Assembly (NCBI GenBank): GCA_964641225.1
Contig: CAZXKC010000006.1
Span: forward strand, 1 to 59,546
DNA from: an uncultured Candidatus Saccharibacteria bacterium
Lineage (GTDB): Bacteria > Patescibacteriota > Minisyncoccia > UBA6257 > 1-14-0-10-44-23
DNA: 59,546 nt
Direction of reading: 5' to 3'
Shown: positions 58 through 45,375 of the stretch, piece by piece
Numbering within the stretch: position 1 is the stretch's first letter
Layout: each line of letters opens with the position of its first letter
Made by a program: the position numbers and the translations under genes
The notes under the pieces: model-generated
Seen by the model: the letters and a program-made list of their open reading frames with translations, nothing else
The model's database searches: none
Told to the model about the DNA's origin: nothing

Positions 58-1809
58 ATGCAGGAGTTACTCCAAAAGAAAATTGCCGAGACGCTTAGTG
101 TGCCGCTCGAACAGGTGAGTATCACCGTGCCGGAGATCGCCGAGTTCGGACACTACTCGACTAACGTTGCGATGCGTCTATTCGCAGAGCGGAAGAAGCA
201 TGCCCCGGCCAGCACGGCGGGGACGCCGCTCGTTTTAGCCGAGGAGTTTGCGCAAAAACTAAAGGCTGCCGCTCCGGAGATGTTTGCCGACGTAAAAGCC
301 GTAAAGCCGGGCTTCATTAATTTTTGGATTTCGGAAAAGTTTCTATCTGATGAATTCGCCAAAGGTGATGTCGCGCAAAATATCGGGGAAGGTAAAAAAG
401 TCATCGTCGAGTACGCCTCATGCAACATCGCTAAGCCGATGCACGTCGGCCACCTACGCTCGACCATCATCGGCGATGCGCTCGCTAACATCCACGCCTA
501 CCTAGGCTACGACGTTATCCGCTGGAACTACATCGGCGATTGGGGGACGCAGTTTGGAAAGTTGATATATGCATATAAGAATCCTTTGCAGGTCGGTAGC
601 ACGAAAGGAATTACTAAAGAAAATTTAGATGCTCGTATCAAAGCGAAACCCATTGAAACCCTTTTAGATTTGTACGTTGGTTATCACGAATATGTTCAGG
701 GCTCCAAATCTGACATTGGGCTCGCAATAGAGAATGGCGCGCGAGCCGAGTTTAAAAAGCTGGAGGAGGGGGATGCCGAGAATCGTAAGTTACTCGAATG
801 GTTTAAGGCCGAGTCGCTGGTCGCGTTTAATGCGCTCTTCGCGCGTCTCGGGGTGAAGTTTGATATTGAATACGGCGAGGCGTTTTATGAAAAGGCGCTG
901 GCCGGTGTTAATGCCGAACTTGCGGAGAAGAAGCTGTCGGAGCAGAGTGAAGGCGCGGTCATCGTTAACTTAGACAAGTTTAAGTTGCCACCGGCGCTCG
1001 TCCAGAAAGGGGACGGAGCCAGTTTGTATCTCACGCGCGACATCGCCAATCTTGAGTATCGTTTGAAGGAGTACAAGCCGGCCAAGATTTTGCTCGTCGT
1101 TGCCAATCAGCAGGCGCTGCACTTTGAGCAGCTCTTTGCGGTTGCGCAGCTGCTTGGACTTACGGGTTCGGAATTGCAACACGTGAAGTTTGGTATGGTG
1201 CTTGGCCCGGATGGTAAGAAGTTCGCGACTCGCGAAGGCAAGCTGATTAAGCTCGAGGAGCTGCTTGACGAGGTAACGGCCAAGGCGATGGCGGTTGTGT
1301 CGCGCAACAACGCGGAGATGCCACCAGAGCAGGCCAAGGCCATCGCCGAAATGGTTGGCATCGGCGCGCTCAAATACAATGACTTAAAAGAAAATCGCAA
1401 CTCCGACATTACGTTTAACTGGGAGGCGATGCTGGATTTGCACGGAGACAGCGCGCCGTATTTACAGTATGCCGCTGTCCGGTTTATGAACATCATCCGC
1501 AAGGCGGGGGAGGTAGGCAAGGGCGACATCTCGATGCTGACGGACGAGCTCGCGATGCCACTTATTAAAAAAGTCTTAGACTTTAATGATGTCGTGCAGC
1601 TCTGCGCGCAGACGTATTACACCAGCCATTTGGCTAAGTATTTGTTTGAGCTGGCCAAACTCGGGAACCAGTATTACGAAAGCGTGCGTATTCTGGATGA
1701 CGAGAACGTAGAACGAAAAAAAGCGCGGCTGCTTTTGATTGATTCGGTTGCACAGACGATCACGAAGGGGTTGGGACTTTTGGGGATTACGGTGCCGGAG
1801 AGGATTTAG
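58..1809 (+). CDS. argS: Arginine--tRNA ligase
   Basis: 583-aa ORF. Class I HIGH-type motif (AKPMHVGHLRS), ArgRS-like KKFATREGK segment and a C-terminal anticodon-binding region. Confidence 0.93.
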   Translation: MQELLQKKIAETLSVPLEQVSITVPEIAEFGHYSTNVAMRLFAERKKHAPASTAGTPLVLAEEFAQKLKAAAPEMFADVKAVKPGFINFWISEKFLSDEFAKGDVAQNIGEGKKVIVEYASCNIAKPMHVGHLRSTIIGDALANIHAYLGYDVIRWNYIGDWGTQFGKLIYAYKNPLQVGSTKGITKENLDARIKAKPIETLLDLYVGYHEYVQGSKSDIGLAIENGARAEFKKLEEGDAENRKLLEWFKAESLVAFNALFARLGVKFDIEYGEAFYEKALAGVNAELAEKKLSEQSEGAVIVNLDKFKLPPALVQKGDGASLYLTRDIANLEYRLKEYKPAKILLVVANQQALHFEQLFAVAQLLGLTGSELQHVKFGMVLGPDGKKFATREGKLIKLEELLDEVTAKAMAVVSRNNAEMPPEQAKAIAEMVGIGALKYNDLKENRNSDITFNWEAMLDLHGDSAPYLQYAAVRFMNIIRKAGEVGKGDISMLTDELAMPLIKKVLDFNDVVQLCAQTYYTSHLAKYLFELAKLGNQYYESVRILDDENVERKKARLLLIDSVAQTITKGLGLLGITVPERI

Positions 1810-1862
1810 AAACAGCGTGGCACCTGTCGGGAGTACTTCTCCTCGCGCAGGTGCCGTGTGGG

Positions 1863-2132
1863 CTACTTCTTGAGAGCACGTGCTCGTCCGTCATTGCAGA
1901 TGACGACCGGGAAACCGTTCCATGTTGACGGAACCCGCGACTTCAAACGCTCGAACTCCTCGCTAGAGCTTCGTTGATACGATACAAGAATAGCGAAGTT
2001 GCCATCCTTTCTTGTGACGCCAGTGCTCCATCCGGTGAGGTCGATGTCTGCGAGGTGGCTACCCAATTCATCTGCCGCCGCTTCGGCGGCTTTGTATTTC
2101 TCAGTCACGAAGGGGTCCTCCTCTGCATCCAA
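1863..2132 (-). CDS. Hypothetical protein (GC-rich cassette A)
   Basis: 89-aa ORF opened by TTG with no in-frame ATG. The in-frame GTG at 2108 has GAGGAGG 8 nt upstream and is the likelier start. A GC hairpin at 1819-1857 lies just downstream. Confidence 0.45.
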   Translation of the reverse strand: MDAEEDPFVTEKYKAAEAAADELGSHLADIDLTGWSTGVTRKDGNFAILVSYQRSSSEEFERLKSRVPSTWNGFPVVICNDGRARALKK

Positions 2133-2196
2133 AATGGATGCTAGATTATGCTAATTGCTGGGACTGCTCTTGTCAATTTGCTAATCTGATTTTTGA

Positions 2197-2205
2197 TGGT
2201 ATAAT
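2197..2205 (+). promoter_or_regulatory. Extended -10 promoter element TGgTATAAT
   Basis: Exact TGN-TATAAT match. It lies ~140 nt upstream of an intrinsic terminator with no ORF in between. Confidence 0.45.
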
Positions 2206-2211
2206 CACTCT

Positions 2212-2372
2212 ACATAACGGCCAAGCTGTCTGACCCCGAACTAGAGTTGCTTCGCAACACAGTACGGGGCGAGGTATACAGCTAGCCGCTACATAGCAGT
2301 GAGGTTGTCTGATATACAACTAACTGCGGCAAGATTTTTTGATCAGCCGCGCTAGTTGCGCGGATTTTATTT
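2212..2372 (+). ncRNA. Candidate small RNA (~160 nt) between the promoter and the terminator
   Basis: No ORF. Nested helices are visible: GGCCAAGCUGU/ACAGCUAGCC closing stem, CCCCG/CGGGG, GUUGC-UUC-GCAAC hairpin and a GCAGU..GUUGU/ACAAC..ACUGC hairpin. It ends in a terminator. No known family recognised. Confidence 0.4.
2347..2372 (+). terminator. Rho-independent terminator
   Basis: CCGCGC-tagtt-GCGCGG stem-loop followed by ATTTTATTT. Confidence 0.6.
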
Positions 2373-2391
2373 GAGGGCTTAGTGAGCCCTC

Positions 2392-2479
2392 ACCCCGTGA
2401 GATGCACCAGCTATCTCGCTGGGGTTGCTATCTTAGTCACCACCCCGAAGAGATAGGCGAGTACGCCATCTCATGGGGT
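2392..2479 (+). promoter_or_regulatory. Structured leader hairpin immediately upstream of ileS
   Basis: A 13-bp closing helix (ACCCCGTGAGATG / CATCTCATGGGGT) encloses nested CTATCTC/GAGATAG and GGGG/CCCC helices. The 3' arm ends 20 nt before the ileS ATG. Confidence 0.35.
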
Positions 2480-2498
2480 GAAAATTTAATAAATTTTC

Positions 2499-5400
2499 AT
2501 GTTAAAAAATTTAAAGGAGTTCAAGTTGCCGGAGATAGAGGAGCAGGTTCTAAAGTTTTGGAAAGAGCACTCGATTTTTAAACAATCGCTTGCAAAAAAT
2601 AAAGGCAAAAATAAATTTGTCTTTTTTGAAGGGCCGCCGACGGCAAACGGTATGCCAGGGTTGCACCACCAGCTCGCACGTTCATTTAAAGACATCATCC
2701 CGCGGTTTAAGGCGATGCAGGGCTACGACGTGCCGCGCAAGGCAGGCTGGGATACGCATGGGCTACCCGTTGAGATCCAGGCGGAGAAGGAGCTTGGGCT
2801 TAACGGTAAGCAGGATATTGAAAAATATGGGATCGCCGAGTTTAACGCAAAATGCCGTGATTTGGTGTGGAGATATCGAACGGAATTTGAGGCGGCGACG
2901 GAGCGGCTTGGTTTTTGGCTCGACCTTGAACACCCGTATGTGACCTATGAAAATAATTACGTTGAATCACTTTGGTGGATAATCGGCCAGATTGATAAAA
3001 AGAAATTGCTGTATCAAGGCCACAAGATTGTGCCGTGGTGTACGCGCTGCGGTACCTCGCTTTCAAGTCATGAGCTCGCGCAGGGATATAAGGAGGTAGA
3101 GGATACGTCGGTGTATGTGAAGTTCAAACTCAAAACTCAAAACTCAAAACTCAAAACGAAATTACCAACATATATTCTTTCGTGGACAACTACTCCTTGG
3201 ACCTTGCCCGGCAATGTGGCCTTAGCGGTTGGTGAAAAAATTGAGTATTCGTTAATTGAAGTTGGCGTCGAGAACTATATTCTTGCGAAGAATAGGTTAG
3301 CAACAGTTTTCCCGGATCCTTCTGTTTATAGTTTAAAGTATACTGTGTATGGTCGCGATTTAGTTGGCCTAAATTATCAGCCCCTATTTGACGTTAAGCC
3401 GCTTAAAACAAAGAAGGCGTACAAGGTGTATGCTGCCGACTTTGTGACGACTACAGACGGAACTGGGGTAGTACACACGGCCGTGATGTATGGTGAGGAC
3501 GACTATCGTCTAGGTATTGAGCTTGGGCTGCCACAGCATCACACCGTTGATGAGCGGGGACATTTCACAAAAGACGTTAAGAGTTTGGTCGGGATGTACG
3601 CAAAAAGCGGCAAGGCCGAGGCGCATATTATCGAGCACCTGACAAAAAATAATTTATTACTAAAGACGGAAAAGTACAAACACGAGTATCCGCATTGCTG
3701 GCGCTGCAGTACGCCACTTTTGTATTACGCACGCAGCTCATGGTTTGTCGGTATGTCAAAGCTGCGCAAGCAATTGCTTTCAGCAAACAAGACGATCAAT
3801 TGGACACCGGCGCATATTAAAGAGGGTCGCTTCGGCGAATGGCTCAAAGAGGTGAAGGATTGGAATTTTTCGCGTGAGCGTTACTGGGGTACGCCGCTAC
3901 CGGTCTGGCGCAGCAAGGATCACAAGCAGCAACTCGTGGTTACTTCGCTTGATGACATTAAGAAATACGGTAATTTACAGGGCAACCGATTTTTTGGTAT
4001 TCGGCATGGAGAGTCGACGCACAATATTCAAAACAAGCTTGCCTCAGGTTCTGAAAAAGTACTTCGTAGTGAGTTGACGCCGCGTGGGATAGAGCAGGTT
4101 GAGGCTGCGGCTAAAGAACTCAAGAAGCACAAAATTAATGTAATCATTGCCTCACCGTATTATCGCGCACAGCAGACGGCGCAGATTTTGGCAAAGGCAC
4201 TGAAGGTCAAAGTAATAACTGATAAACGTCTTGGCGAGGTGAACGCAGGTATTTATAGCTGGCAGAGGATTGAGGCATATTGGGAGTTTTATCGTAAAAC
4301 GGAAAATTGGCTCAGGGCGGCTCCGGAAAAGGGCGAGTCGCACGCTGACGTACTCAAGCGTGTTATTGCGTGCGCGCGAGATATTAATAAAAAATTCAAA
4401 AATAAGAATATTTTGTTTGTAAGTCACGGCGATCCGCTACGCTTCTTGTATGGTGGTTTCAAAGGTTTTACAAATGAGCAGTTTAAATCAATGCATTACG
4501 ACCCCGCACCTGCGAGCGTGATTGAGTTTGACCCACCGGTGTTGCCGTTTAATGATGAGGGCCGCGTTGATCTGCACCGGCCATATATTGATCACGTTGT
4601 GCTCCGAGACCCTAAAACGAAAAAAGAATTGCATCGTGTCAAAGAGGTCGTCGATGGTTGGTTTGATTCCGGCTCAATGCCGTACGCCCAGAGTCATTTT
4701 CCATTTGAGCAGTCTGAGGGCGGCAAAGTAAGCCCTGAAACGTTTAAAAAGATTGATTTTCCGGCCGATTTTATCGCCGAAGGTATCGATCAAACACGCG
4801 GTTGGTTTTACACGCTTCTAGCCGTCTCAACGCTGCTCGATCTGCCGGCTGCATACAAAAACGTGATCTGCCTCGGCCTTATTCACGACAAGAATGGGCA
4901 GAAGATGAGTAAGAGTCGTGGCAACATTGTTAATCCGATGGAGCTGATGCAAAAGCATGGTGCTGATGTGATGCGCTGGTATTTCTACACAGTCGGCGAT
5001 CCAGGGGATTCAAAGAATTTTGACGAGGCTGACTTTGGAAAAATCACACGCCGTTTTGTAATGATTTTGTACAACTCTTTTGTATTTTGGAACTCATATG
5101 CAAAAGGTGGGCAGACTAAAGATGCGTATAAGTCGACAAATGTTTTAGACGTTTGGATTTTAGCGCGGTTGCATCAGTTAATGGCTGAAGTAACGCGTAA
5201 TCTAGAAAAATACGAGATCGGCAAAGCTGCTCAGTTGATAGAGTTGTTTACTGATGATTTGAGTCGGTGGTACATTCGCCGTAGTCGTGATCGGTTCCAG
5301 AGCAATGCGCGTGGTGGCAGTGTAGACGAGGCCGATTTTCGCGCTGGTAGTGCAACCCTGCAAGAGGCTCTGCTTCAACTTTCAAAATTAATGGCACCGT

Positions 5401-6011
5401 TTATGCCATTCTTCAGCGATGCGCTGTATCAGGCGGTCGGCGGACAAAAAGATTCCGTGCATCTTGATGAATTTCCAGTGGGAGATGCGACTTTGGCCGA
5501 CACAGAGCTCATTGAAGATATGACCGCAGTTCGTGATCTCGCGGCAAAGGCGCTTGCGCTTCGTTCAGAGGCCGGTATTAAGGTGCGCCAGCCACTTAAC
5601 GCACTCTATCTCTCTGACGCTCGCCTTGCGGCAAAGATTGAATTGATGGCGATCCTTAAAGATGAGGTAAATGTGAAAAAGGTGTTAGTTGATGCTAGTA
5701 AGGTAAATGCTGACGGGGTTGGCTTGGATACAACTATCACTGCGCAGCTTAAAGAAGAAGGTGTAGTCCGCGAACTTATCCGGGCGATTCAAGGTCTACG
5801 TGCAAGCGCCGGATACTTAATGGGAGATGATATCGTACTTGTGGTTGCCGGCACTCAGGAGTTAAGCGATCTCGTGCAGCGTCATTCTGTGACCATTAAA
5901 AAATCAGTGAATGCAAAATTGATTGAGCTTGCGAAGAATGAAAAAGTTGATGCACAGATTGATACAAAGATTGAGGACGCTCAGGTCTGGATAGGGGTAC
6001 GCAGGCTCTAA
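2499..6011 (+). CDS. ileS: Isoleucine--tRNA ligase with an inserted histidine-phosphatase domain
   Basis: 1170-aa ORF. Contains the HIGH-region PTANGMPGLHH, KMSKS, Zn-type CxxC pairs (CTRCGT, CWRCST) and WFDSGS. The extra ~190 aa are described in the next feature. Confidence 0.93.
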   Translation: MLKNLKEFKLPEIEEQVLKFWKEHSIFKQSLAKNKGKNKFVFFEGPPTANGMPGLHHQLARSFKDIIPRFKAMQGYDVPRKAGWDTHGLPVEIQAEKELGLNGKQDIEKYGIAEFNAKCRDLVWRYRTEFEAATERLGFWLDLEHPYVTYENNYVESLWWIIGQIDKKKLLYQGHKIVPWCTRCGTSLSSHELAQGYKEVEDTSVYVKFKLKTQNSKLKTKLPTYILSWTTTPWTLPGNVALAVGEKIEYSLIEVGVENYILAKNRLATVFPDPSVYSLKYTVYGRDLVGLNYQPLFDVKPLKTKKAYKVYAADFVTTTDGTGVVHTAVMYGEDDYRLGIELGLPQHHTVDERGHFTKDVKSLVGMYAKSGKAEAHIIEHLTKNNLLLKTEKYKHEYPHCWRCSTPLLYYARSSWFVGMSKLRKQLLSANKTINWTPAHIKEGRFGEWLKEVKDWNFSRERYWGTPLPVWRSKDHKQQLVVTSLDDIKKYGNLQGNRFFGIRHGESTHNIQNKLASGSEKVLRSELTPRGIEQVEAAAKELKKHKINVIIASPYYRAQQTAQILAKALKVKVITDKRLGEVNAGIYSWQRIEAYWEFYRKTENWLRAAPEKGESHADVLKRVIACARDINKKFKNKNILFVSHGDPLRFLYGGFKGFTNEQFKSMHYDPAPASVIEFDPPVLPFNDEGRVDLHRPYIDHVVLRDPKTKKELHRVKEVVDGWFDSGSMPYAQSHFPFEQSEGGKVSPETFKKIDFPADFIAEGIDQTRGWFYTLLAVSTLLDLPAAYKNVICLGLIHDKNGQKMSKSRGNIVNPMELMQKHGADVMRWYFYTVGDPGDSKNFDEADFGKITRRFVMILYNSFVFWNSYAKGGQTKDAYKSTNVLDVWILARLHQLMAEVTRNLEKYEIGKAAQLIELFTDDLSRWYIRRSRDRFQSNARGGSVDEADFRAGSATLQEALLQLSKLMAPFMPFFSDALYQAVGGQKDSVHLDEFPVGDATLADTELIEDMTAVRDLAAKALALRSEAGIKVRQPLNALYLSDARLAAKIELMAILKDEVNVKKVLVDASKVNADGVGLDTTITAQLKEEGVVRELIRAIQGLRASAGYLMGDDIVLVVAGTQELSDLVQRHSVTIKKSVNAKLIELAKNEKVDAQIDTKIEDAQVWIGVRRL
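3984..4562 (+). other. Histidine phosphatase (phosphoglycerate-mutase-like) domain inserted in IleRS (aa ~496-688)
   Basis: RHGES (aa 502-506) and the distal VSHGDP motif are both present. The domain is flanked by contiguous IleRS sequence (..GTPLPVWRSKD.. and ..DLHRPYIDHV..). Confidence 0.75.
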
Positions 6012-6086
6012 GCCAGTCATAGCCTTACGCCGCGTTGCTCTCTGGTTTCGAGCCTTAGCTCTAAAAATGACACGACCCGCAGGCTT

Positions 6087-6449
6087 CTACGAGTGTGTCA
6101 TAGACGATGCCTGCGGGTCGGCTGCTTCTTCCTGTCCAGGTGCGAGCGCGAGCTGAACGCTTGTCAGCTCCTCGCCGATCGCGGCATGGACCTTGCCAGC
6201 GGTGATCGAGTTGAGATGAAAGCGGAGATTGGCCGCCTCCGTCTGATCTCCTTGCCCGGCGAGAACCTTGAGCTCTCCTCCGATTTGAGTCAGGCGGCTC
6301 TTGTCTGCCAAGACATTCGCCATAGACGTTACTTCATTCCACTGGTTCCTGGCGCAGATTTCTTTGATCTCCGCCACCAGGATCGCTATCTCAGCGCTAC
6401 GTGTTGGCGTTTCTGCGGTCATCCAGAATTCCTCCGAGGGCTCAGGCAC
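6087..6449 (-). CDS. Hypothetical protein (GC-rich cassette B)
   Basis: The ORF opens at GTG. The internal ATG at 6422 has GGAGG 8 nt upstream and is the likelier start (111 aa). The stop lies in the loop of an 11-bp GC hairpin (6073-6119) followed by a T-run on the minus strand. Confidence 0.55.
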   Translation of the reverse strand: MPEPSEEFWMTAETPTRSAEIAILVAEIKEICARNQWNEVTSMANVLADKSRLTQIGGELKVLAGQGDQTEAANLRFHLNSITAGKVHAAIGEELTSVQLALAPGQEEAADPQASSMTHS

Positions 6450-6462
6450 AACGAGTGCGTGA

Positions 6463-6494
6463 GTAAAAACAGCATGGAGCAGTTTGCATGCTGT
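6463..6494 (-). terminator. Rho-independent terminator of trpS
   Basis: ACAGCATG / CATGCTGT 8-bp stem followed by TTTTAC on the minus strand, just downstream of the trpS stop. Confidence 0.6.
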
Positions 6495-6515
6495 GTCAAT
6501 AGAAAAAATCAGTTT

Positions 6516-7493
6516 TTAGATCAAACCGATTTTTTGGTAGACCTCTTTGAGTTTTGCTTGGGCAATTTTGTTTGCTTTCTTTGAGCCGGCGTCAAAAATT
6601 TTGAGAACTTTTGCAGGATTCTTCATTAACTCTGCTTTTTTGGTGCGAATTGGGGCGAGGTACTCAGCTGTAACCTCGGCAACGTAGGTTTTAAACTGGC
6701 CGTAGTTCTTGCCGACGAATTCTGCTTCGAGAGCGGCGATTGTTTTACCGGTGATAGCAGTTGCAATGCGCAAAAGGTTGCTGATGCCTGGCTTTCCGGT
6801 TTCGTCGAATTTTACCTCGCTACCGGAGTCAGTAACTGCGCTCATGATTTTTTTCTTTACCACCTCGGGCTCGTCGTCTAAGAATAAGCAGCCGCTTGGT
6901 TGCGACTTGCTCATTTTTTTAAGCGGATCGGCGAGGCTCATTACGCGTGGAGTTTCGGTATGAAGTGCCTTGGGTTCAGAAAAGATTTCTCCGTAGCGGC
7001 CATTAAATTTACGTACGATTGTTCTGGTGAGCTCAAGATGCTGGTCCTGGTCGTCACCAACGGGCACAAAGACAGGATTGTATAGCATAACGTCGGCTGC
7101 CATTAAAACTGGGTAGTCAAAAAGGCCCGCATTGGCTTCCATTCGCTCACTTTTATCTTTATATTGCGTCATGCGGTTTAGCTCGCCCATTGGTGTGACC
7201 GTGTTAAATATCCATGAAAGTTGTGTATGCGCAGGAATTTTTGATTGAAGGAAGAGAACTGATTTTTTTGCCGTAAGACCCGCCGCGAGATATGTTGCCG
7301 CGAGTTCTTTGATTTGTTCAGATTGTTCTTTCGCAGAGGTTGGTTCGGTGAGTGCATGTAAATCAGCAAGCATAAAATAGCACCCATATTTGTCTGAGTT
7401 CTGAAGATCCACAAAGTTTTTGAGCGCACCAAAATAGTTGCCGATATGTAGGCGGCCGGAGGGCTGAATACCTGAAAGAATAACTGGTTTCAT
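6516..7493 (-). CDS. trpS: Tryptophan--tRNA ligase
   Basis: 325-aa ORF. N-terminal GIQPSGRLHIGNY (HIGH) and KMSKS motifs. Confidence 0.93.
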   Translation of the reverse strand: MKPVILSGIQPSGRLHIGNYFGALKNFVDLQNSDKYGCYFMLADLHALTEPTSAKEQSEQIKELAATYLAAGLTAKKSVLFLQSKIPAHTQLSWIFNTVTPMGELNRMTQYKDKSERMEANAGLFDYPVLMAADVMLYNPVFVPVGDDQDQHLELTRTIVRKFNGRYGEIFSEPKALHTETPRVMSLADPLKKMSKSQPSGCLFLDDEPEVVKKKIMSAVTDSGSEVKFDETGKPGISNLLRIATAITGKTIAALEAEFVGKNYGQFKTYVAEVTAEYLAPIRTKKAELMKNPAKVLKIFDAGSKKANKIAQAKLKEVYQKIGLI

Positions 7494-10367: not shown

Positions 10368-12545
10368 CTAGACTTCGATAATCACGGGCAGAATCATGGG
10401 GCGGCGCAGTGTCTTGTTGTAGAGCGCTAAGCCGAGCTGGTCGCGAATAATGCCTTTGATGTAATCGCTCTCAGCTTCTTGGCGCACCTTGCTCTGATTT
10501 ACTTGGTTAACAAGCGTTTTTACTTTCAGACGAATGTCGCTCATGAGTGTGCCTTGATCCTTGAGATAGATAAAGCCGCGGCTGATGATGTCCGGATTTT
10601 TTACTAATTTACCGGTACGTTTTTCAATCGTGCAGATAACGACGATCATACCTTCTTGGGCAAGTAATTTGCGATCACGCAGCACCACGGCTTCGACGTC
10701 GCCGACGCCGAGTCCGTCGACCATGACGTAGGTCGAGTCGACATGCTGTTCGGTCGGGCGGATACCGTTTTCGGTAAGCTCAACAATCTGTCCGTTGTCG
10801 ACAACGATGACGCGGTCTTTTGGAATTCCGACGCTTTTCATGTTGTGATAGTTCGCGGCGCGCATATAGATGTGGCCGTGGACAGGGATGATGTACTTCG
10901 GCTTACAAAGCTTCGCAACGAGCGCCAAGTCCGGACCAGGGCAGTGACCTGAAGAGTGGATGTCTAAGTCGCTGTTGGTGTGTACTTCTGCGCCCTGACG
11001 GACGAGGTTGTCTTTGACGGCCTGCACCGAGCGTTCGTTACCCGGAATAACCGAGGAGCTGAAGATAACGGTATCGGTGTTTTTGATTTTGACGTACTTG
11101 TGTTCGCCATTAATGATGCGCATCAAGCCGGCGTTTTCCTGGCCCTGGGCACCGGTCGTTAGCACGAGAACCTTGTTGTCCTCATGCTTCTGGACCTCTT
11201 CGATTGGAATTAGCGAACCGTTTTTGTAGGACAAGTAGCCAAGCTGACGGGCGATTTCAAGGTTGTCTTTCATCGAGCGGCCGTTGATAGCAACTTTGCG
11301 ACCGATTTTTTCGGCGATCTTGATGATTTCCGCGAGACGCTCGATCATTGAGGCGAAGGTGGAAAGAATAATACGGCCCTCGGATTTGAGGAATAACTTC
11401 TCGATGTTCTCGATAACGATTTCTTCGGAGACGGTGTGGCCCTCCTCGTGAGCATTAGTCGAGTCGATAAGCAGTGAGTGCACGCCCTGGGTGCCGAGCC
11501 ATTCGTATTCTTGCAGGTTAAACGGGTTACCCTCGCGGTCGTACTCCAAACGGAAGTCGGCGAAGTGTACCATTTTGCCAACCGGAGTTTCGAGCATCAC
11601 GCCGGTAGTATCCGGGACAGTGTGCGCAACACCAAAGAATTCGGCCGTAAAGTGTTCGCTGATTTTGGAGCGGGTGTGGTTTTTGATAACTTCAAAACGC
11701 ATCTTCGGCGCGTTTGGCATTTCGTCTAAGCGTTTCTTCAAGATTTCGCGAATCAGCTGCGTTCCGTAAATGACCGGATTGCCAAGCTTTTCAAGCACGT
11801 AGGGGACTGCGCCAAAGTGGTCGTAGTGCGCATGCGTGATTATTATGCCTTTGATGTTCTTTTTCTTTTTTTCAAGATAGCTGATGTTCGGAATAATCCA
11901 GTCGATGCCCGGTGTGTCCTCCTCAGGGAACTGAATACCCATGTCGATGATAACGATTTCGTCGTTGTACTCAAAGAATGAGCAGTTGCGGCCGACCTCT
12001 TCGAGTCCACCAAGTGGAATCCAGTAGAGTGTGTCGCGTTTAAGGGGGACATCACCAGTTAGGGCGCCTTCTTTCTTAATGAACTTGCGTTCACTAAACA
12101 TCGTGATCATTTGCTGGCGCGGCATTCGATTGGTTCGATTTTTAATCGGTTTGTTCGAAAGCTCACGCGGCGTTATACCACCCTTATCGATTTGTGGGCG
12201 AGCAGCGTGTTCTTGGGCGCGTTGTGCCTGGTGCTGTTTTGCCTCTGCATCTGTAAAGACGCGGCCACCATCGATGTGAACGGCACGGCGCGTTTGCTGA
12301 ATTTTAAAGACGCCGGTTTTGATCGGCGTTTGCCCAGTCTCGCCCGGATGGCGATTCGAGGCGGACGGTTTTAGAGCCGCTTCGGCGTCGCTCGGCATCA
12401 GCGGTTTGCTGTTAGTGACTGAATGAGGCAGGTGGCTTGCGGCTGGCTTGCCCGCTGCGGCGGGACCACGACTTACGACTGATCGAAAGCGCGGGCGATT
12501 ATTAGGGCGCCGTCCTTTTGACGGCTCTTTTATATTAGGAGTCAT
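10368..12545 (-). CDS. rnj: Ribonuclease J with a ~165-aa basic, low-complexity N-terminal extension
   Basis: Metallo-beta-lactamase HAHYDH motif and beta-CASP/RNase J architecture from about aa 170. The start at 12545 is supported by a TAATAA hexamer 6 nt upstream. Confidence 0.88.
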   Translation of the reverse strand: MTPNIKEPSKGRRPNNRPRFRSVVSRGPAAAGKPAASHLPHSVTNSKPLMPSDAEAALKPSASNRHPGETGQTPIKTGVFKIQQTRRAVHIDGGRVFTDAEAKQHQAQRAQEHAARPQIDKGGITPRELSNKPIKNRTNRMPRQQMITMFSERKFIKKEGALTGDVPLKRDTLYWIPLGGLEEVGRNCSFFEYNDEIVIIDMGIQFPEEDTPGIDWIIPNISYLEKKKKNIKGIIITHAHYDHFGAVPYVLEKLGNPVIYGTQLIREILKKRLDEMPNAPKMRFEVIKNHTRSKISEHFTAEFFGVAHTVPDTTGVMLETPVGKMVHFADFRLEYDREGNPFNLQEYEWLGTQGVHSLLIDSTNAHEEGHTVSEEIVIENIEKLFLKSEGRIILSTFASMIERLAEIIKIAEKIGRKVAINGRSMKDNLEIARQLGYLSYKNGSLIPIEEVQKHEDNKVLVLTTGAQGQENAGLMRIINGEHKYVKIKNTDTVIFSSSVIPGNERSVQAVKDNLVRQGAEVHTNSDLDIHSSGHCPGPDLALVAKLCKPKYIIPVHGHIYMRAANYHNMKSVGIPKDRVIVVDNGQIVELTENGIRPTEQHVDSTYVMVDGLGVGDVEAVVLRDRKLLAQEGMIVVICTIEKRTGKLVKNPDIISRGFIYLKDQGTLMSDIRLKVKTLVNQVNQSKVRQEAESDYIKGIIRDQLGLALYNKTLRRPMILPVIIEV

Positions 12546-16785: not shown

Positions 16786-18321
16786 ATGCCTAAAACCAAG
16801 CCAGAAGCACGCACGCCGTTTCATGGACGTATCGGAAAACTCATTGAAGCATTCCGAGAGCGCGCCGGATTAACGCAACAAGAGCTCGCAAAAATTGCCG
16901 GCACAAGTCAGAGCGCAATTGCGCGCATGGAGGACGGCGAACAAAATTTTACCGTTGAGATGCTTGAAAAAATTTCTGCAGCACTCAAGCGCGACATTGT
17001 TACGCTTTCGAAGGGGAGTATTGATTTTGAAATCGAAGGCGGACATCCACTCTCTGGCTCAGTCGTTACGAAGACGAGCAAAAATGCCGCCGTTGGGTTG
17101 CTCTGTGCGGCGCTTCTCAACCAAAATGTGACGACGCTTAAGAATATGCCGAAGATCGAGGAGGTGAAGCGTTTGATTGAGGTGCTCGAAAGCATCGGGG
17201 TTGAGATTCACTGGGTGGGCGATGATTTGCAGATCAATCCTCCGAAGAAACTGAATATGGCCGGACTCAATATTGCCTCGGCGATCAAGACGCGCAGCAT
17301 CATCATGTTTATCGGTCCGCTGATTCATCAGTTGAAGCAATTTTCGTTGCCCCAGGTTGGTGGGTGTAAGCTGGGGAGTCGCACGGTGCGCCCGCATTTT
17401 TATGCGCTCGAAAAATTAGGAGTTTCAATCGAGGCGCATCACGACAACTACGCCGTTAGTTATAAAGAGCTCGCGCCAAACTATATTGTGCTCTACGAGT
17501 CAGGTGATACGGTTACTGAAAATGTGCTGATGGCCGCTGCGCTGATTCCTGGCAAAACAACGATCAAATTTGCCTCGGCAAATTATCAGGTCCAGGACAT
17601 GTGTCACTTTTTGCAGGAGCTCGGAGTGAAGATCGAGGGGATTGGAACGACGACGCTGGTTGTACACGGCGTGAAGTCGATTAATAAACCGATTACGTAT
17701 GCCCCGAGCGAGGATCCGATTGAGTCGATGTTTTTCATCGCCGCCGCCGCAACTACCAATTCTTCAATTGAAATAAAGCGCTGCCCAATTGATTTTTTGG
17801 AGATCGAGCTTTTGAAGTTAGAAAAAATGGGGTGGAAGTTTACGCTTTCAAAGCCGTATAAAGCCGCCAATGGGTTTGCAAATCTGGTTGATATCACGAC
17901 GCATCCGAGCACGCTTGTTGCGCTTGAAGAAAAAATTGATTCGCGACCGTATCCGGGTATGAATATCGACAACCTGCCATTTTTTGCAGTGATCGCAACG
18001 CAGGCGCAGGGTCGCACACTGATTCACGACTGGGTCTACGAAAAAAGAGCTATCTATTATACAGAGCTTGATAAGCTGGGGGCGAACACGGTTCTAGCCG
18101 ATCCGCACCGCGTATTTATTCAGGGTCCTACGCCGCTTCGGGCAAACCAGGTTGTGTGTCCGCCCGCACTGCGCCCGGCAACGATTATTTTGATCGGTAT
18201 GCTTGCCGCAAAGGGGACCTCGATTTTGCGTAACGTGTATTCAATCAATCGTGGATACGAAGATCTCGCAAGCCGATTGAATAAGTTGGGGGCGAAGATA
18301 AAAATACTCAGAGAAGAGTAA
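16786..18321 (+). CDS. murA: XRE-family HTH domain fused to UDP-N-acetylglucosamine 1-carboxyvinyltransferase
   Basis: aa 1-75 form an HTH (LTQQELAKIAGTSQSAIARMEDG). The remainder is MurA-like (KTSKNAAVGLLCAALL, active-site loop VGGCKLGSRTVRPH). Confidence 0.85.
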   Translation: MPKTKPEARTPFHGRIGKLIEAFRERAGLTQQELAKIAGTSQSAIARMEDGEQNFTVEMLEKISAALKRDIVTLSKGSIDFEIEGGHPLSGSVVTKTSKNAAVGLLCAALLNQNVTTLKNMPKIEEVKRLIEVLESIGVEIHWVGDDLQINPPKKLNMAGLNIASAIKTRSIIMFIGPLIHQLKQFSLPQVGGCKLGSRTVRPHFYALEKLGVSIEAHHDNYAVSYKELAPNYIVLYESGDTVTENVLMAAALIPGKTTIKFASANYQVQDMCHFLQELGVKIEGIGTTTLVVHGVKSINKPITYAPSEDPIESMFFIAAAATTNSSIEIKRCPIDFLEIELLKLEKMGWKFTLSKPYKAANGFANLVDITTHPSTLVALEEKIDSRPYPGMNIDNLPFFAVIATQAQGRTLIHDWVYEKRAIYYTELDKLGANTVLADPHRVFIQGPTPLRANQVVCPPALRPATIILIGMLAAKGTSILRNVYSINRGYEDLASRLNKLGAKIKILREE

Positions 18322-41332: not shown

Positions 41333-42970
41333 TTAGGATTTTTCAGGATCATATCCTTCTTCTGCGGGAAGGACGCTTTTTTGTTTCTTGAAATATCGAA
41401 CTGCAAGCCATGCGCCGCCAGCAACTGCGGCTACGACCCCTGCGGTTACAATGTAGGCAGTGGTGTGTGTAGGGGGCGTGAGCAATACAGTTTTTGCCGG
41501 TGCAACTTTTATAAACGTACCATCTTCATTAGCGGCGTAGACAATGATTGTATGTGTGCCGTCTGCCAAGCCTTCGATGTCTTTACTGGTTGTTCCTGCT
41601 GGAACAGTAATTGTTTTTTCGAGCTTATGGTTCTGATCAAAAATATCAATACGATATCCGTATTGCGATCCGCCTCCCTGCGCGGCGGGCCAGCTTACGT
41701 TCGTACCGCCACCCTGCCCCGGGTTTGTGTTGATGCCGGGATTACTCGAAGAACCTCCCGGTGATCCATCTGGAGGATTATTCGACGAGCCGCTCGTGCC
41801 TGGTCCTGTTGCGCCTCCCGGAGTGGTTGAGGTTGATGCGGGCGTCGTACTACTCGGAGTACCGGGTGGGTTGCTCGTTCCTCCTGGGTTGTTGTCAGTT
41901 GGCGGATTACTTGGAGGATTTGAAGGTGGGTTGCCTGGCGGAGTTGAGGGTGGCGTTGAGGTTGATGCGGGAGGATCTTGAGGCGGCGGGTTTGTTGGTG
42001 GTTCGGTGGACGGAGTAGCTGATCCGGCCGGCGTCCTAAACGCAATTGTATACGTAGTTAATACAATTTGGTTACCCGGGCTTGAAAACATATCGGCAAA
42101 ATAATTGGTTGCTCCCTGAAGCCCGCTTACAATAACGGTGTGTTCGAGCTCAAGTGTCTGATCTGTGTTGCCGGCGATCGTATAGAGCGGGTTAAGCTGA
42201 GTGCGAATGCCTACGCGTGCATCAGTGGCGACATTAGTGGTCCAGGCAACTGTCACGGTGCTTGGGGTGCTCGTGACAATTCGCGCATTGGTGATTATGA
42301 TGCTATTTTCTTGCTCTTGTATTGTTGATGTTGAATTAGACGGTGCTTGAATGGTGCTGCTTGCATCACTGTTGTATGCGCCCTGGCTTATCGGCGCATA
42401 CAGCGCCAGCTTAAAAGTGAAGGGTTGTTGGTTTTGGCCGATTTTTGCGACACCGTTTTGGTATTCGCTTGTGAAGCTTCGATTGTGTTCGATTGATAAA
42501 ATACGGTCTGCATAATACATGCCCAGACCGGAGAGGTTGGAAGTAATTTGTAGGCTGTATGTTTCACCAGTGATAACCGGGATCGGGGTTTGGATTTCAA
42601 AATGAACTTTATTACCTCCGGCGATCTGTGCGAGATGGGGAATCGAGGCGTTGATAATTCCAATCTCTTGCTGGCTTGCATCAAATAATGTCAGCGTAAC
42701 GGGGCCTGATGAGCCGGTGTTATCAACCCATAGATCAAGTCCTGTCAGCGTTGTCGTCAGTGGCGATTGGAATATTTCATAGACTGGTCCTGCGGCCGTA
42801 TTCATGGCAAAGCGTTGTGATTGCCAGGAGTCAGGGGCAAATTCAAAAATAACGCTGTCGGCATGGGCGAGCAGAGGAGTAACAATAAGTAGCAACGTTA
42901 ATAAGGCAGTGAAACGCTTCACCTTCTTATCATACCACTTGCTAATGAGGCTGGCGGGTGTAATCACCAA
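41333..42970 (-). CDS. Secreted, C-terminally anchored protein with a Pro/Thr/Ser/Gly-rich low-complexity region
   Basis: The ORF opens at TTG. The in-frame GTG at 42922 gives a signal peptide (MKRFTALLTLLLIVTPLLAHA) and removes the overlap with the upstream gene. Fn3/Ig-like beta regions and a C-terminal TM segment. Confidence 0.7.
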   Translation of the reverse strand: MVITPASLISKWYDKKVKRFTALLTLLLIVTPLLAHADSVIFEFAPDSWQSQRFAMNTAAGPVYEIFQSPLTTTLTGLDLWVDNTGSSGPVTLTLFDASQQEIGIINASIPHLAQIAGGNKVHFEIQTPIPVITGETYSLQITSNLSGLGMYYADRILSIEHNRSFTSEYQNGVAKIGQNQQPFTFKLALYAPISQGAYNSDASSTIQAPSNSTSTIQEQENSIIITNARIVTSTPSTVTVAWTTNVATDARVGIRTQLNPLYTIAGNTDQTLELEHTVIVSGLQGATNYFADMFSSPGNQIVLTTYTIAFRTPAGSATPSTEPPTNPPPQDPPASTSTPPSTPPGNPPSNPPSNPPTDNNPGGTSNPPGTPSSTTPASTSTTPGGATGPGTSGSSNNPPDGSPGGSSSNPGINTNPGQGGGTNVSWPAAQGGGSQYGYRIDIFDQNHKLEKTITVPAGTTSKDIEGLADGTHTIIVYAANEDGTFIKVAPAKTVLLTPPTHTTAYIVTAGVVAAVAGGAWLAVRYFKKQKSVLPAEEGYDPEKS

Positions 42971-43601
42971 GATGAGCGTGATCGTTGATAGTGATTAGGT
43001 TCCAGTCCTTCTTTTTGTTTTTTTCAAGCGTAGCTACAGTAATACCGGTATTGTTAAGAGATGTTGCGTAAAAGAAATCCGATGCTATTTTACCGCTTAC
43101 ATCCTCTCCGTGAATCATAACTGCGAATAATACCTTGAGTAGTCGTGCGTGACTCACCACCAGAATATATTGGTAGTCTAATGTCGCAAGATGATTAAGA
43201 AATTCTGCCGCGCGAGTTCTAATTTCTTGAAAGCTTTCTTCGTCGCTATGCTTCCAGCTTGCGTTTGCGCCTGCGGCCCAATGCTGCTCGATAAGATCAC
43301 GTACTGCAACTGCCTCCGGGTCTTTTTTGAGTTTGCCGTCAAGACTGCTGGGCCATCTGAATTCGCCGATAAGATTATCCTTTCTGATTTGTAATGATTT
43401 ATCCTCAGCAATCGTTTCTGCAGTTTGCTTTGCGCGCGCATACGGGCTGGTGATTATGTGATCTACAGGAATAGATTCAAAACGTGCTGCTAATATTCGG
43501 GCTTGTTCGCGTCCTTTTTCAGTCAGGGGTTCATCTGGGGTTTGCTGCGTTCCATTTTGATTAGAAACACATTCTCCATGTCTTACAAAATATACTTTCA
43601 T
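42942..43601 (-). CDS. Histidine phosphatase family protein (phosphoglycerate mutase-like)
   Basis: N-terminal VRHGE motif and distal VSHA motif. Confidence 0.8.
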   Translation of the reverse strand: MKVYFVRHGECVSNQNGTQQTPDEPLTEKGREQARILAARFESIPVDHIITSPYARAKQTAETIAEDKSLQIRKDNLIGEFRWPSSLDGKLKKDPEAVAVRDLIEQHWAAGANASWKHSDEESFQEIRTRAAEFLNHLATLDYQYILVVSHARLLKVLFAVMIHGEDVSGKIASDFFYATSLNNTGITVATLEKNKKKDWNLITINDHAHLGDYTRQPH

Positions 43602-43602
43602 A

Positions 43603-45375
43603 CTAGTATGCTGCGCGAAGCGCGTTAAGGGTTACGCCGACGTCGATAATTTCTTGAATTGTTGCCGCGGCAACCGGAGTAATGAGGCCTAAAGAGGCGA
43701 GCGCCATACCGATTACTGATAATCCGATACCGATAACGATACTTTGCAGCGCGATTTGTGTCGCACGATGAGAGAGCGCCAATGTTTCGCCTACAAGCAA
43801 AACATCGTGGCTCAAAATTGCCGTACTCGCTGCTTCAATTGAAGCACTATTTTCTGTGCCTGAAAAGACGATGCCTGCATCTGCGAGTGCGAGTGCCGGC
43901 GCGTCGTTAAGGCCGTCACCAACCATTACGACGACTTCGCCGGCTGCGCGTGCTGCTTTTACAATTTCAAATTTTCGTTCTGGCGTTGCGCGTGCATAGA
44001 TCTTTGCGCCGCTATTGCCGAATAAGCGCATGGCATTTTCCTCTGAGTCGCCAGTGATGATTGCAACCTTATATTTTTTCGTGATCGTCGCAAGAAACTG
44101 TGCAGCATTTTGCTTGAGCTCGTCTGAAAACAAGAAGCGGGCAAGGCGAGTGCCACCCTTCATCATATCGAGAGCTATGCCACCCTCCGTTGTTTCCACA
44201 CTTTTTAAAAGTTGATATTGCACTCCGTCAACTGAGCCCGTGATGCCTTCACCGATTTTCTCAGTAACCTGTTTAGCAACTAACTCCGGCAGACTACGCC
44301 GGCTACGCTCGGCGGTAATTGCGCGCGCGAGCGGGTGCAGCGAGTGAAGCTCTATGGCCGCTGCGATGACGAGTACGTGCGCCTCATCAATATTTTTATT
44401 GTAGAGTTTGATTTCTGTCAGTGTCGGCGTTCCCAGTGTCAGGGTTCCTGTTTTATCAAAAAATAATGTTGTTGCGCGGCTTAATACTTCGAGCACAGAA
44501 GGCTTTTTAATAATGATTGTTTTTTTCGCTGCTTTGCTCATGCCTCCAAGAAAGGCGATTGGCGCGGCAATTAAGAGTGGGCAAGGTGTTGCAATCGCGA
44601 GCACTGCTAATGTTCGGGCCAGATCGCGTGTAATCAGATATGTTGCGCCAGCGGTGACAAGCGCGATAACAGTAAATGGCCAGTTAAATTTTTGGGCAAG
44701 ACGAACAATGCGCGCAGGGTGTTTTTTTGTTTCTTCAACGAGTTTAATAATTTTTTGATAGCTTGATGTTTCAAAGGTACCTGAGGTTTCTAATTCAAAT
44801 GATCCCCCGGTATTTACTGACCCGCTTTTGATAAAGTCACTGATTTTAAGTTCGACCGGAAGGCTTTCGCCGGTTAAGTTTGCTTCATTGATAGTTGCAT
44901 GTTGTGAGCGCAGGAAACCATCAAGCGGAATAAGTTCATTGGTTTTTACGAAAATAATTGAGCCTTCAGTAACATCCTGAATAGGCATCTCTTTAAATCC
45001 GCCCGCATGCTTGACCAGCACATTTTTTGGTAGGCGATCTAATAACGCGCGCAGCGATGCCTCGGCTCGATCTGATCCAAATTCTTCGAGTGCGCCCGAG
45101 AGCGTGATCATGAGCGCAACGATTGCGCCGGCGAGATAGTACTCTGACGAGAGCAGGGCTGTGGCCATGGCGAGCATGGCAATGTAGTCGAGCGACCAGC
45201 GTCCTTCGCGCACTTTCTCAATTGATTCAATAAGCAGCTTTAAAAGTCCGAGCGCGATCGCGGCAATATAAATAACTGGCTGCGAGGCTATGGCTGCAGC
45301 AATAGTGACGGCGAGAATAAGCGCGGGAACGGCGAAGAGGGAGTTTTTGCGTATAAATGTAGGCAGGCTGTGCAT
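43603..45375 (-). CDS. P-type (P1B-like, heavy-metal/cation) ATPase without an N-terminal metal-binding domain
   Basis: DKTGTLT phosphorylation site, GDGLNDAPAL hinge and TPCPL in the TM region. Confidence 0.85.
   Translation of the reverse strand: MHSLPTFIRKNSLFAVPALILAVTIAAAIASQPVIYIAAIALGLLKLLIESIEKVREGRWSLDYIAMLAMATALLSSEYYLAGAIVALMITLSGALEEFGSDRAEASLRALLDRLPKNVLVKHAGGFKEMPIQDVTEGSIIFVKTNELIPLDGFLRSQHATINEANLTGESLPVELKISDFIKSGSVNTGGSFELETSGTFETSSYQKIIKLVEETKKHPARIVRLAQKFNWPFTVIALVTAGATYLITRDLARTLAVLAIATPCPLLIAAPIAFLGGMSKAAKKTIIIKKPSVLEVLSRATTLFFDKTGTLTLGTPTLTEIKLYNKNIDEAHVLVIAAAIELHSLHPLARAITAERSRRSLPELVAKQVTEKIGEGITGSVDGVQYQLLKSVETTEGGIALDMMKGGTRLARFLFSDELKQNAAQFLATITKKYKVAIITGDSEENAMRLFGNSGAKIYARATPERKFEIVKAARAAGEVVVMVGDGLNDAPALALADAGIVFSGTENSASIEAASTAILSHDVLLVGETLALSHRATQIALQSIVIGIGLSVIGMALASLGLITPVAAATIQEIIDVGVTLNALRAAY

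Follow-up and report, generated by a model that had tools for sequence, protein, structure and literature searches.

A histidine phosphatase domain nested in the isoleucyl-tRNA synthetase of Parcubacteria/Paceibacteria and its free-standing relatives beside ileS

Aminoacyl-tRNA synthetases are among the best-studied enzymes, yet one entire bacterial radiation houses a further, apparently active enzyme within the catalytic body of a synthetase that is itself essential, and the question is what this enzyme does there. The question is raised here by the ileS gene of an uncultured bacterium of the Candidate Phyla Radiation (CPR), a member of the Parcubacteria/Paceibacteria with a tiny genome; the gene lies in a stretch of 59,546 nucleotides (nt) on contig CAZXKC010000006.1, in the following called the window. 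An initial annotation, made from the letters of this stretch and its reading frames, had described a domain of the histidine phosphatase superfamily inserted inside isoleucyl-tRNA synthetase (IleRS). Our data reveal that this domain is genuine and that it is nested within the open reading frame (ORF) of a type-2 IleRS. The features concerned are listed below (aa, amino acids; CP, connective peptide):

2499 to 6011, plus strand: ileS, type-2 isoleucyl-tRNA synthetase with nested phosphatase, a single complete ORF of 1170 aa (P0001)
2499 to 3983, plus strand: N-terminal part of IleRS, aa 1-495, with the Rossmann N-half, CP core, CP1 editing domain, CP2, CP2-3 linker and first CP3 strands
2658 to 2669, plus strand: GxHH signature G54-L55-H56-H57, a variant of the HIGH motif that is seen in structure 8c8w too
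3984 to 4562, plus strand: nested branch-1 histidine phosphatase domain, aa 496-688 (PF00300 match at aa 501-679, nt 3999-4535)
4002 to 4007, plus strand: codons of R502 and H503 in the RHG motif, H503 being the presumed phospho-acceptor, invariant in 27/27 full-length relatives
4164 to 4166, plus strand: codon of R556, second phosphate-binding arginine, invariant
4335 to 4337, plus strand: codon of E613 in the GES motif, presumed proton donor, invariant in the alignment of 27 relatives
4425 to 4427, plus strand: codon of H643, distal histidine of the SHG motif, invariant
4563 to 6011, plus strand: C-terminal part of IleRS, aa 689-1170, from the CP3 return strand to DUF5915
4902 to 4916, plus strand: KMSKS motif, aa 802-806

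Is the insert a histidine phosphatase? In the whole protein, the family His_Phos_1 (PF00300) is matched with E 2.1e-38 and 132.4 bits against a gathering score of 21.7, over profile positions 4-183 of 194, and the stretch 3984-4562 scored alone reaches E 6.3e-40, which bears out the assignment made in the initial annotation. The nesting is likewise confirmed: tRNA-synt_1 (E 9.6e-118) is matched by Pfam in two stretches around His_Phos_1, and so is the NCBIfam model TIGR00392 (878.3 bits, cut-off 621.4), whose two matched stretches flank the insert. Anticodon_1 and DUF5915 are also recognized in the 1170-aa protein, in which Pfam counts one His_Phos_1 domain and gives no match to NUDIX. The interval 3984-4562 translates to aa 496-688, and the IleRS sequences that had been quoted on its two sides are correct, with ...DDIKKYG ending at aa 491 and GRVDLHRPYID starting at aa 688. 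The signatures RHGES and VSHGDP were rightly read as containing both catalytic histidines (H503 and H643), and both arginines and the glutamate are present as well.

Could the junctions be artificial? Contigs of independent samples span both of them: two Logan contigs, X1 (2828 nt) from one sample and X2 (1604 nt) from another, read through the junctions without a single difference, and the Logan contigs show neither an alternative joint nor a loose end there. The sequence is found in four runs of one bioreactor-metagenome study, and the fragmentation seen in two lower-coverage runs extends over the whole stretch and is not specific to the junctions. The GC content across the gene is 0.42-0.50 without a step at either junction, the reading frame is unbroken, and an assembly break, for which the initial annotation had asked to look, does not occur. 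The same design moreover recurs elsewhere: 15 genomes have it, as do more than 120 protein clusters drawn from JGI, NCBI, ENA and Logan. The independent contigs, the genomes and the protein clusters alike rule out an assembly chimera or a mis-joined contig, to which we concede next to no chance.

The synthetase that surrounds the insert has all the expected motifs. The CP1 editing motif WTTTPWT occupies aa 229-235, the CP-core cysteines are C181, C184, C400 and C403, the CP3 return strand DLHRPYID lies at aa 691-698 and DGWFDSG at aa 719-725, followed by the anticodon-binding domain (aa 884-1035) and DUF5915 (aa 1050-1169). In the alignment of 27 full-length relatives GLHH, KMSKS, WTTTPWT and the CP-core cysteines are invariant, as is H326, and D335 is nearly so. 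Because these motifs are complete and invariant among relatives, the ORF apparently encodes a working type-2 IleRS; no second ileS was found within the window. The nearest solved structure is IleRS2 of Priestia megaterium (8c8w, E 7e-238), and IleRS of Thermus thermophilus (1ile) is also close. With the solved IleRS2 structures (8c8u, 8c8v, 8c8w, 1ile) the window protein shares the enzyme body, GxHH, KMSKS, the CP1 editing motifs and the anticodon-binding and C-terminal domains. An AlphaFold2 model built from the 27 relatives (predicted local distance difference test, pLDDT, 89.6; predicted template modelling score, pTM, 0.81) was compared by Foldseek with 8c8v, 1ile and 6ldk, giving template modelling scores normalized to the target of 0.81, 0.90 and 0.89, respectively.

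By the published domain nomenclature the phosphatase lies at the tip of subdomain CP3, where alignment with 8c8w shows it in place of a loop of about 7 residues (8c8w about 478-485) between ...SIKELQKHA and ...IELHKPYVDDV. Solved IleRS2 enzymes thus have a short loop at this place, and in T. thermophilus CP3 holds a zinc knuckle (PMC7191050), whereas the window protein has a phosphatase of 193 residues. A CxxC...CxxC pair flanking the phosphatase is kept in distant members of the nested family, and the CP3 cysteines are lost in the subclade of the window. The CP2-3 linker DWNFSRERYWG (aa 454-464) precedes the insertion site by 30 residues. This linker (ARDWNVSRNRYWG in yeast) lines the pocket for tRNA A76 and reveromycin, and CP3 begins just beyond it (PMC7955072; PMC7191050). 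A structure prediction had been proposed as a check of whether the insert forms a discrete domain; in the AlphaFold2 model it does, as an alpha/beta domain with pLDDT 85-96, both junctions included.

Which kind of phosphatase is it? By profile comparison the nearest solved proteins are Hydrogenobacter PSP1 (4ij5), PhoE (1ebb, 1h2e) and CobC (6nru, 6e4b), with E values of 1.7e-28 to 4e-24, and the alignment with 4ij5 runs from end to end, including the region that forms a cap over the active site. PSP1/PspA, PhoE and CobC share with the insert the full fold including the cap and the catalytic set, but they are free-standing enzymes, and the insert is not a member of these functional families by score, since it stays below every curated equivalog cut-off in NCBIfam (dPGM_arch 94 vs 225, CobC TIGR03162 91 vs 163, PspA 90 vs 350, SixA 36 vs 74.5). 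The isoelectric point (pI) of the insert ranges from 5.1 to 9.8 across members and tracks the pI of the IleRS body, so that a conserved basic surface, which would be a sign of RNA binding, was not found by this measure. Precedents exist for both halves of the combination. The NCBI model NF040702 ('isoleucine--tRNA ligase, N-acetyltransferase domain-containing', ileS_w_GNAT) describes an IleRS with an extra enzyme, which is however a GNAT and not a phosphatase; the window protein scores 334 bits against its cut-off of 1999 and has no acetyltransferase match. In the bifunctional RNase H/acid phosphatase of NF005567 (Rv2228c type) a histidine phosphatase similar to CobC is joined to an enzyme of nucleic acids, RNase H, but the two are fused end to end, and the score is only 95 bits against a cut-off of 326.

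The superfamily also includes the protein phosphatases SixA, Sts-1 and PGAM5, and both GltX and TrpS are known targets of phosphorylation by kinase toxins. Together with the retained catalytic residues this could speak for a regulator that dephosphorylates IleRS or another translation protein (undoing, for example, the action of a HipA-type toxin kinase) or that senses a phosphometabolite in order to tune IleRS. The score for SixA is far under its cut-off, however, and the insert has a full cap, in contrast to the minimal protein-directed SixA, which lacks one. No kinase partner occurs next to ileS in any locus examined, and we regard a regulator as very unlikely.

Is the domain maintained as an enzyme? 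In the 27 full-length relatives the residues N496, R502, H503, G504, N509, L526, T527, G530, S552, R556, E613, R621, K636 and H643 of the insert are invariant. Over a wider set, the R-H...R...E...H set is intact in 248/249 nested copies (long proteins) and in 43/43 short copies, the latter being proteins of <260 aa that were taken as free-standing. The sole exception among the 292 complete copies is a change of E to Q. Retention in orthologues, which the initial annotation had made a touchstone of its claim, is thereby borne out. Mean pairwise identity is 39% for the insert, as it is for the C-terminal domain, and 54-58% for the Rossmann halves; the identity of the insert and that of the IleRS body are correlated over pairs (r = 0.86). 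Retention of the pentad in 291/292 copies whose overall identity is about 39% marks selection for catalysis, and, with the joint variation of insert and body, it indicates that the domain has diverged together with its host enzyme by vertical inheritance and under constraint on catalysis. The same figures argue against an inactive structural or docking module, in which the fold would be retained and catalysis be irrelevant. One could imagine that the domain stabilizes the region of CP3 from which the zinc knuckle was lost in the window's subclade, but a module of this kind appears highly improbable.

The nested phosphatase is not a rarity of this contig. A search scored on the insert region only returned 29 proteins of about 1140-1230 aa with identical Pfam architecture (from JGI, NCBI, ENA and Logan). 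A scan of one genome per GTDB species returned 15 genomes of Patescibacteria with the domain at the same site, in a frame of about 1160-1300 aa with IleRS motifs; since its query was an alignment of 11 closer sequences, distant nested forms are under-sampled in this number. The 15 genomes are labelled Harrisonbacteria, Campbellbacteria, Nomurabacteria, Paceibacterota and Pacebacteria or carry a generic 'Saccharibacteria' third-party annotation label, and the relatives in the protein and genome searches are labelled Harrisonbacteria, Liptonbacteria, Jorgensenbacteria, Paceibacterota and Parcubacteria. To see how common the design is in CPR IleRS, the distribution had been named as a further check, and a search with IleRS residues 1-480, which is blind to the insert, answers it: the best 120 matches (61-80% identity) carry PF00300 in 120/120 cases. 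The nested phosphatase is therefore the rule, the normal form of IleRS in the window's clade. Many of the database entries are merely named 'class I tRNA ligase family protein' or 'isoleucyl-tRNA synthetase'. The insert profile gave 699 matches at E <= 1e-30 among 1.84 billion representative proteins, and the top 150 of these are a mixture: complete IleRS that contain the domain, pieces of genes of this kind, and proteins about 190 aa long. One nested form was found under an unexpected label: contig JBLIKX010000016.1 (L011), from a metagenome-assembled genome labelled Crocinitomicaceae (Bacteroidota), encodes a CPR-type IleRS with nested phosphatase and is probably a binning contaminant.

The window gene is also one more instance of a design that is already in print, and the statement of the initial annotation that no IleRS with such an insertion had been described must be withdrawn. 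Kantor et al. 2013 (mBio, PMC3812714) reported a CPR (SR1) IleRS split by a nudix and two phosphoglycerate-mutase (PGAM) domains; the passage concerned is one sentence long and gives no insertion site, conservation analysis, synteny or assigned function. As that sentence has it, the SR1 enzyme likewise carries a domain of the PGAM superfamily (His_Phos_1) in frame inside a CPR IleRS, but it has two PGAM domains and a nudix, whereas the window protein has one copy, lacks a nudix and belongs to Parcubacteria/Paceibacteria and not to SR1. Our literature search found no paper on the design besides this one and no functional study, and the curated NCBI models include an IleRS with GNAT but none for the phosphatase form.

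Where does the same phosphatase occur outside IleRS? Contigs were looked up for the short top matches of the insert profile, of which the contig of P0037 was only 636 bp long. The free homologues match the insert profile with E about 1e-55, and in each free-form locus whose flanks can be read they stand beside ileS. Two loci (L024, L025) have the order infC-rpmI-rplT-argS-phosphatase(189 aa)-ileS(931 aa, without insert), in which only 1 nt separates phosphatase and ileS. L026 is arranged as argS ... phosphatase(195 aa)-ileS(955 aa), with a gap of 7 nt before ileS. The phosphatase of L027 lies 10 nt upstream of the N-terminus of a class Ia synthetase, which is an IleRS by its sequence motifs, and in L023 argS and phosphatase are followed by a convergent, insert-free ileS. 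This last ileS (2682-5609 of L023, minus strand) is divided into two ORFs of 412 and 554 aa on a contig with Ns; a frameshift or a gap in the sequencing could account for this, or the gene may truly be split. Throughout L023-L027, ileS is without insert wherever the insertion site is on the contig. A six-frame scan with hidden Markov models recovered exactly one family member in each locus: a nested one in the window and in each of the 15 nested loci, a free one in each of the 5 free loci. Among the loci scanned, the two forms exclude each other.

The genomic address is shared as well. In the window, ileS stands between two further class I synthetase genes:

58 to 1809, plus strand: argS, arginyl-tRNA synthetase (ArgRS; Pfam tRNA-synt_1d, DALR_1, Arg_tRNA_synt_N)
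6516 to 7493, minus strand: trpS, tryptophanyl-tRNA synthetase (PF00579, E 5e-77), convergent with ileS

The identical trio of argS, ileS and trpS side by side occurs in L001-L003, and argS lies upstream of ileS in 7 nested-form loci, in 5 free-form loci and in the window. The adjacency is kept across lineages whose ArgRS are only 27-38% identical. The phosphatases between argS and ileS (such as P0055 in L024 and P0060 in L026) share with the insert the subfamily and the address beside ileS, and they differ from it as separate polypeptides of 189-195 aa next to insert-free IleRS of 931-955 aa. The insert is the orthologue of the free-standing phosphatase gene that stands beside ileS in other CPR lineages, typically in the order argS-phosphatase-ileS. 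The 690-bp spacer between argS and ileS of the window (1810-2498) holds no phosphatase remnant: a tblastn search with nine free homologues matched only 3984-4535 and 42942-43601. An ORF of 89 aa (1863-2132, minus strand) does lie in this spacer, where relatives encode the free phosphatase, and has neither a family nor similarity to the phosphatase. On the other side of ileS, the spacer of about 500 bp between the convergent ileS and trpS (6012-6515) is GC-rich, with 0.57-0.59 compared to about 0.47 around it, and contains overlapping ORFs of 120 aa (minus strand) and 163 aa (plus strand) that have no Pfam match; in L001 the gap between ileS and trpS is only about 64 nt.

The second of the two tblastn matches is another phosphatase gene of the window, to which the initial annotation had already pointed:

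42942 to 43601, minus strand: free-standing His_Phos_1 gene, 219 aa (PF00300, E 3.7e-33)

The gene is real, but as a source or counterpart of the insert it was rejected, as the two are 33% identical over 84 aa only. The free phosphatases adjacent to ileS are 36-43% identical to the insert but 24-29% identical to this gene, which is thus a distant paralogue. Its end is overlapped by 29 nt by the start of a 545-aa gene (41333-42970, minus strand), whose product has a long low-complexity region rich in Pro, Thr, Ser, Gly and Asn, a C-terminal hydrophobic anchor and no Pfam match, and a P-type ATPase gene (43603-45375) lies directly upstream of the phosphatase gene.

How closely is the nested domain bound to its position in CP3? 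The family contains several variants in this respect. P0043 has two tandem His_Phos copies in CP3, P0033 has one copy in CP3 and one between DxWFDSG and KMSKS, and P0046 and P0077 have one copy in CP3 and one after KMSKS. In P0041 and P0070 copies lie between DxWFDSG and KMSKS and also past KMSKS before the anticodon-binding domain, and the partial protein P0031 has four copies in a row. Insertions have thus been made into three different surface loops of IleRS, CP3 and two others. A further partial IleRS of 1066 aa (P0151) combines a Y1_Tnp/IS200-like domain at aa 340-461, in the CP1 region, with His_Phos at aa 680-854 and GNAT at aa 935-1063. CPR IleRS would seem particularly prone to acquiring nested enzymes. 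In a FastTree phylogeny of 195 domain copies, the verified free proteins fall into two well-supported clades consisting of short (<260 aa) sequences only, both of which are placed among the CP3-nested copies; the well-supported branches force 3-4 or more transitions, and some 'free' rows of this tree may be gene fragments.

This variety can be explained in more than one way. On the one hand, the domain may be a passenger, that is, a housekeeping phosphatase for small molecules (e.g. phosphoserine, a sugar phosphate or a nucleotide), mechanistically unlinked to aminoacylation, which was carried from the adjacent operon gene into permissive loops of a highly expressed essential gene. The domain is indeed of the capped small-molecule type, the loops at all three insertion sites are variable and show lowered pLDDT, and the free form belongs to an operon of general translation genes, infC-rpmI-rplT-argS-X-ileS. 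Domains unrelated to the phosphatase also occur within CPR IleRS (the GNAT and the Y1 transposase-like domain of P0151, the nudix of SR1, the GNAT of NF040702), which suggests a permissive host. A single phosphatase family, however, is tied to IleRS in three ways, as adjacent gene, as nested domain at three or more sites and as tandem copies. The mutual exclusion of nested and free forms makes the linkage more specific than chance fusion predicts, and the adjacency with ileS persists across lineages with strongly diverged ArgRS. We therefore consider a passenger rather unlikely, though not negligibly so. Should it nevertheless be one, it would provide a clean natural case of a domain insertion tolerated in CP3, which would be useful for engineering.

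On the other hand, and this is the reading that we prefer with a probability of roughly 0.4, the nested domain would be an active phosphomonoesterase for small molecules, probably of nucleotide type, and would be selected for its proximity to and co-expression with IleRS rather than for a fixed geometry. A complete branch-1 phosphatase resembling PhoE, PspA and CobC sits in the tip of CP3 in place of the short loop or zinc knuckle of other type-2 IleRS. Catalysis would proceed via a phosphorylated histidine, H503, with E613 donating the proton, the substrate would be a small phosphorylated molecule, probably nucleotide-like, and selection would have favoured the link to IleRS that tethering and equal expression provide, as opposed to a geometrically precise transfer from the synthetic or editing site. 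It is the capped fold, the unconserved charge, the copies at three loops and the runs of up to four copies that point to a small molecule and to proximity. The architecture, its conservation, the synteny and the retained catalytic residues are plain from the sequences, whereas activity, substrate class and any benefit for aminoacylation are inferred.

Several observations weigh against this preferred reading. The insert stays below all curated equivalog cut-offs, so that its substrate class is a guess from resemblance. The backbone of the domain tree, in which 79 of 192 branches are open, does not resolve, and fusion is indistinguishable from fission in it. Adjacency in the compact operons of CPR bacteria can arise without a functional link. 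Finally, the same host enzyme has captured the domain repeatedly, and the site in CP3 is only 30 residues past the linker of the A76 pocket, which would fit a role directed at tRNA as well.

Such a role could consist in the healing of tRNA ends, if the phosphatase removed a blocking 2'/3'-phosphate or pyrophosphate from A76 of the tRNA(Ile) held by IleRS, for example after damage by a nuclease or toxin, and thereby formed a third active site beside those for synthesis and editing. The strong genetic linkage to a tRNA-handling enzyme speaks in its favour, as does the insertion in CP3 directly past the CP2-3 linker, which is part of the tRNA A76 pocket (PMC7955072). Against it stand the cap region, which is typical of small-molecule phosphatases, and the lack of conserved positive charge, with a pI down to 5.1 in several members. 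We know of no nucleic-acid substrate in the histidine phosphatase superfamily, and damage to tRNA ends would not be confined to tRNA(Ile). Where copies stand at three sites, or in tandem runs of up to four, it is impossible for every one of them to reach a single tRNA end, and the paper on the solved IleRS-tRNA structure reports no contact between CP3 and tRNA. The healing of tRNA ends is, in our judgement, distinctly unlikely.

As possible substrates the initial annotation had suggested a nucleotide, a phospho-tRNA end or a metabolite related to the adenylate. A broader claim would be that in Patescibacteria the phosphatase, whether nested or, in sister lineages, encoded next to ileS, takes a genuine part in class Ia aminoacylation and adds a third activity to it, instead of being a passenger. 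Its candidate targets would then be a (pyro)phosphorylated tRNA 3' end, a by-product such as AMP, pyrophosphate (PPi) or diadenosine tetraphosphate (Ap4A), or a phosphate or phosphoramidate mimic of the adenylate directed against the synthetase. We hold this to be doubtful, but if tRNA ends, by-products or synthetase poisons were indeed the targets, class I synthetases would gain a new activity in quality control or defence. The genetic evidence is unusually coherent, as the phosphatase is either nested in IleRS or adjacent to ileS, the two states are mutually exclusive and the catalytic residues are strongly constrained, which makes the functional question directly testable.

Two other genes of the window have unusual architectures of their own:

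10368 to 12545, minus strand: RNase J, 725 aa, with an N-terminal extension of about 180 residues before the metallo-beta-lactamase domain, the extension being without Pfam match
16786 to 18321, plus strand: protein of 511 aa in which an N-terminal HTH_3 is fused to an enzyme of the EPSP_synthase family (MurA/AroA type), an unusual fusion

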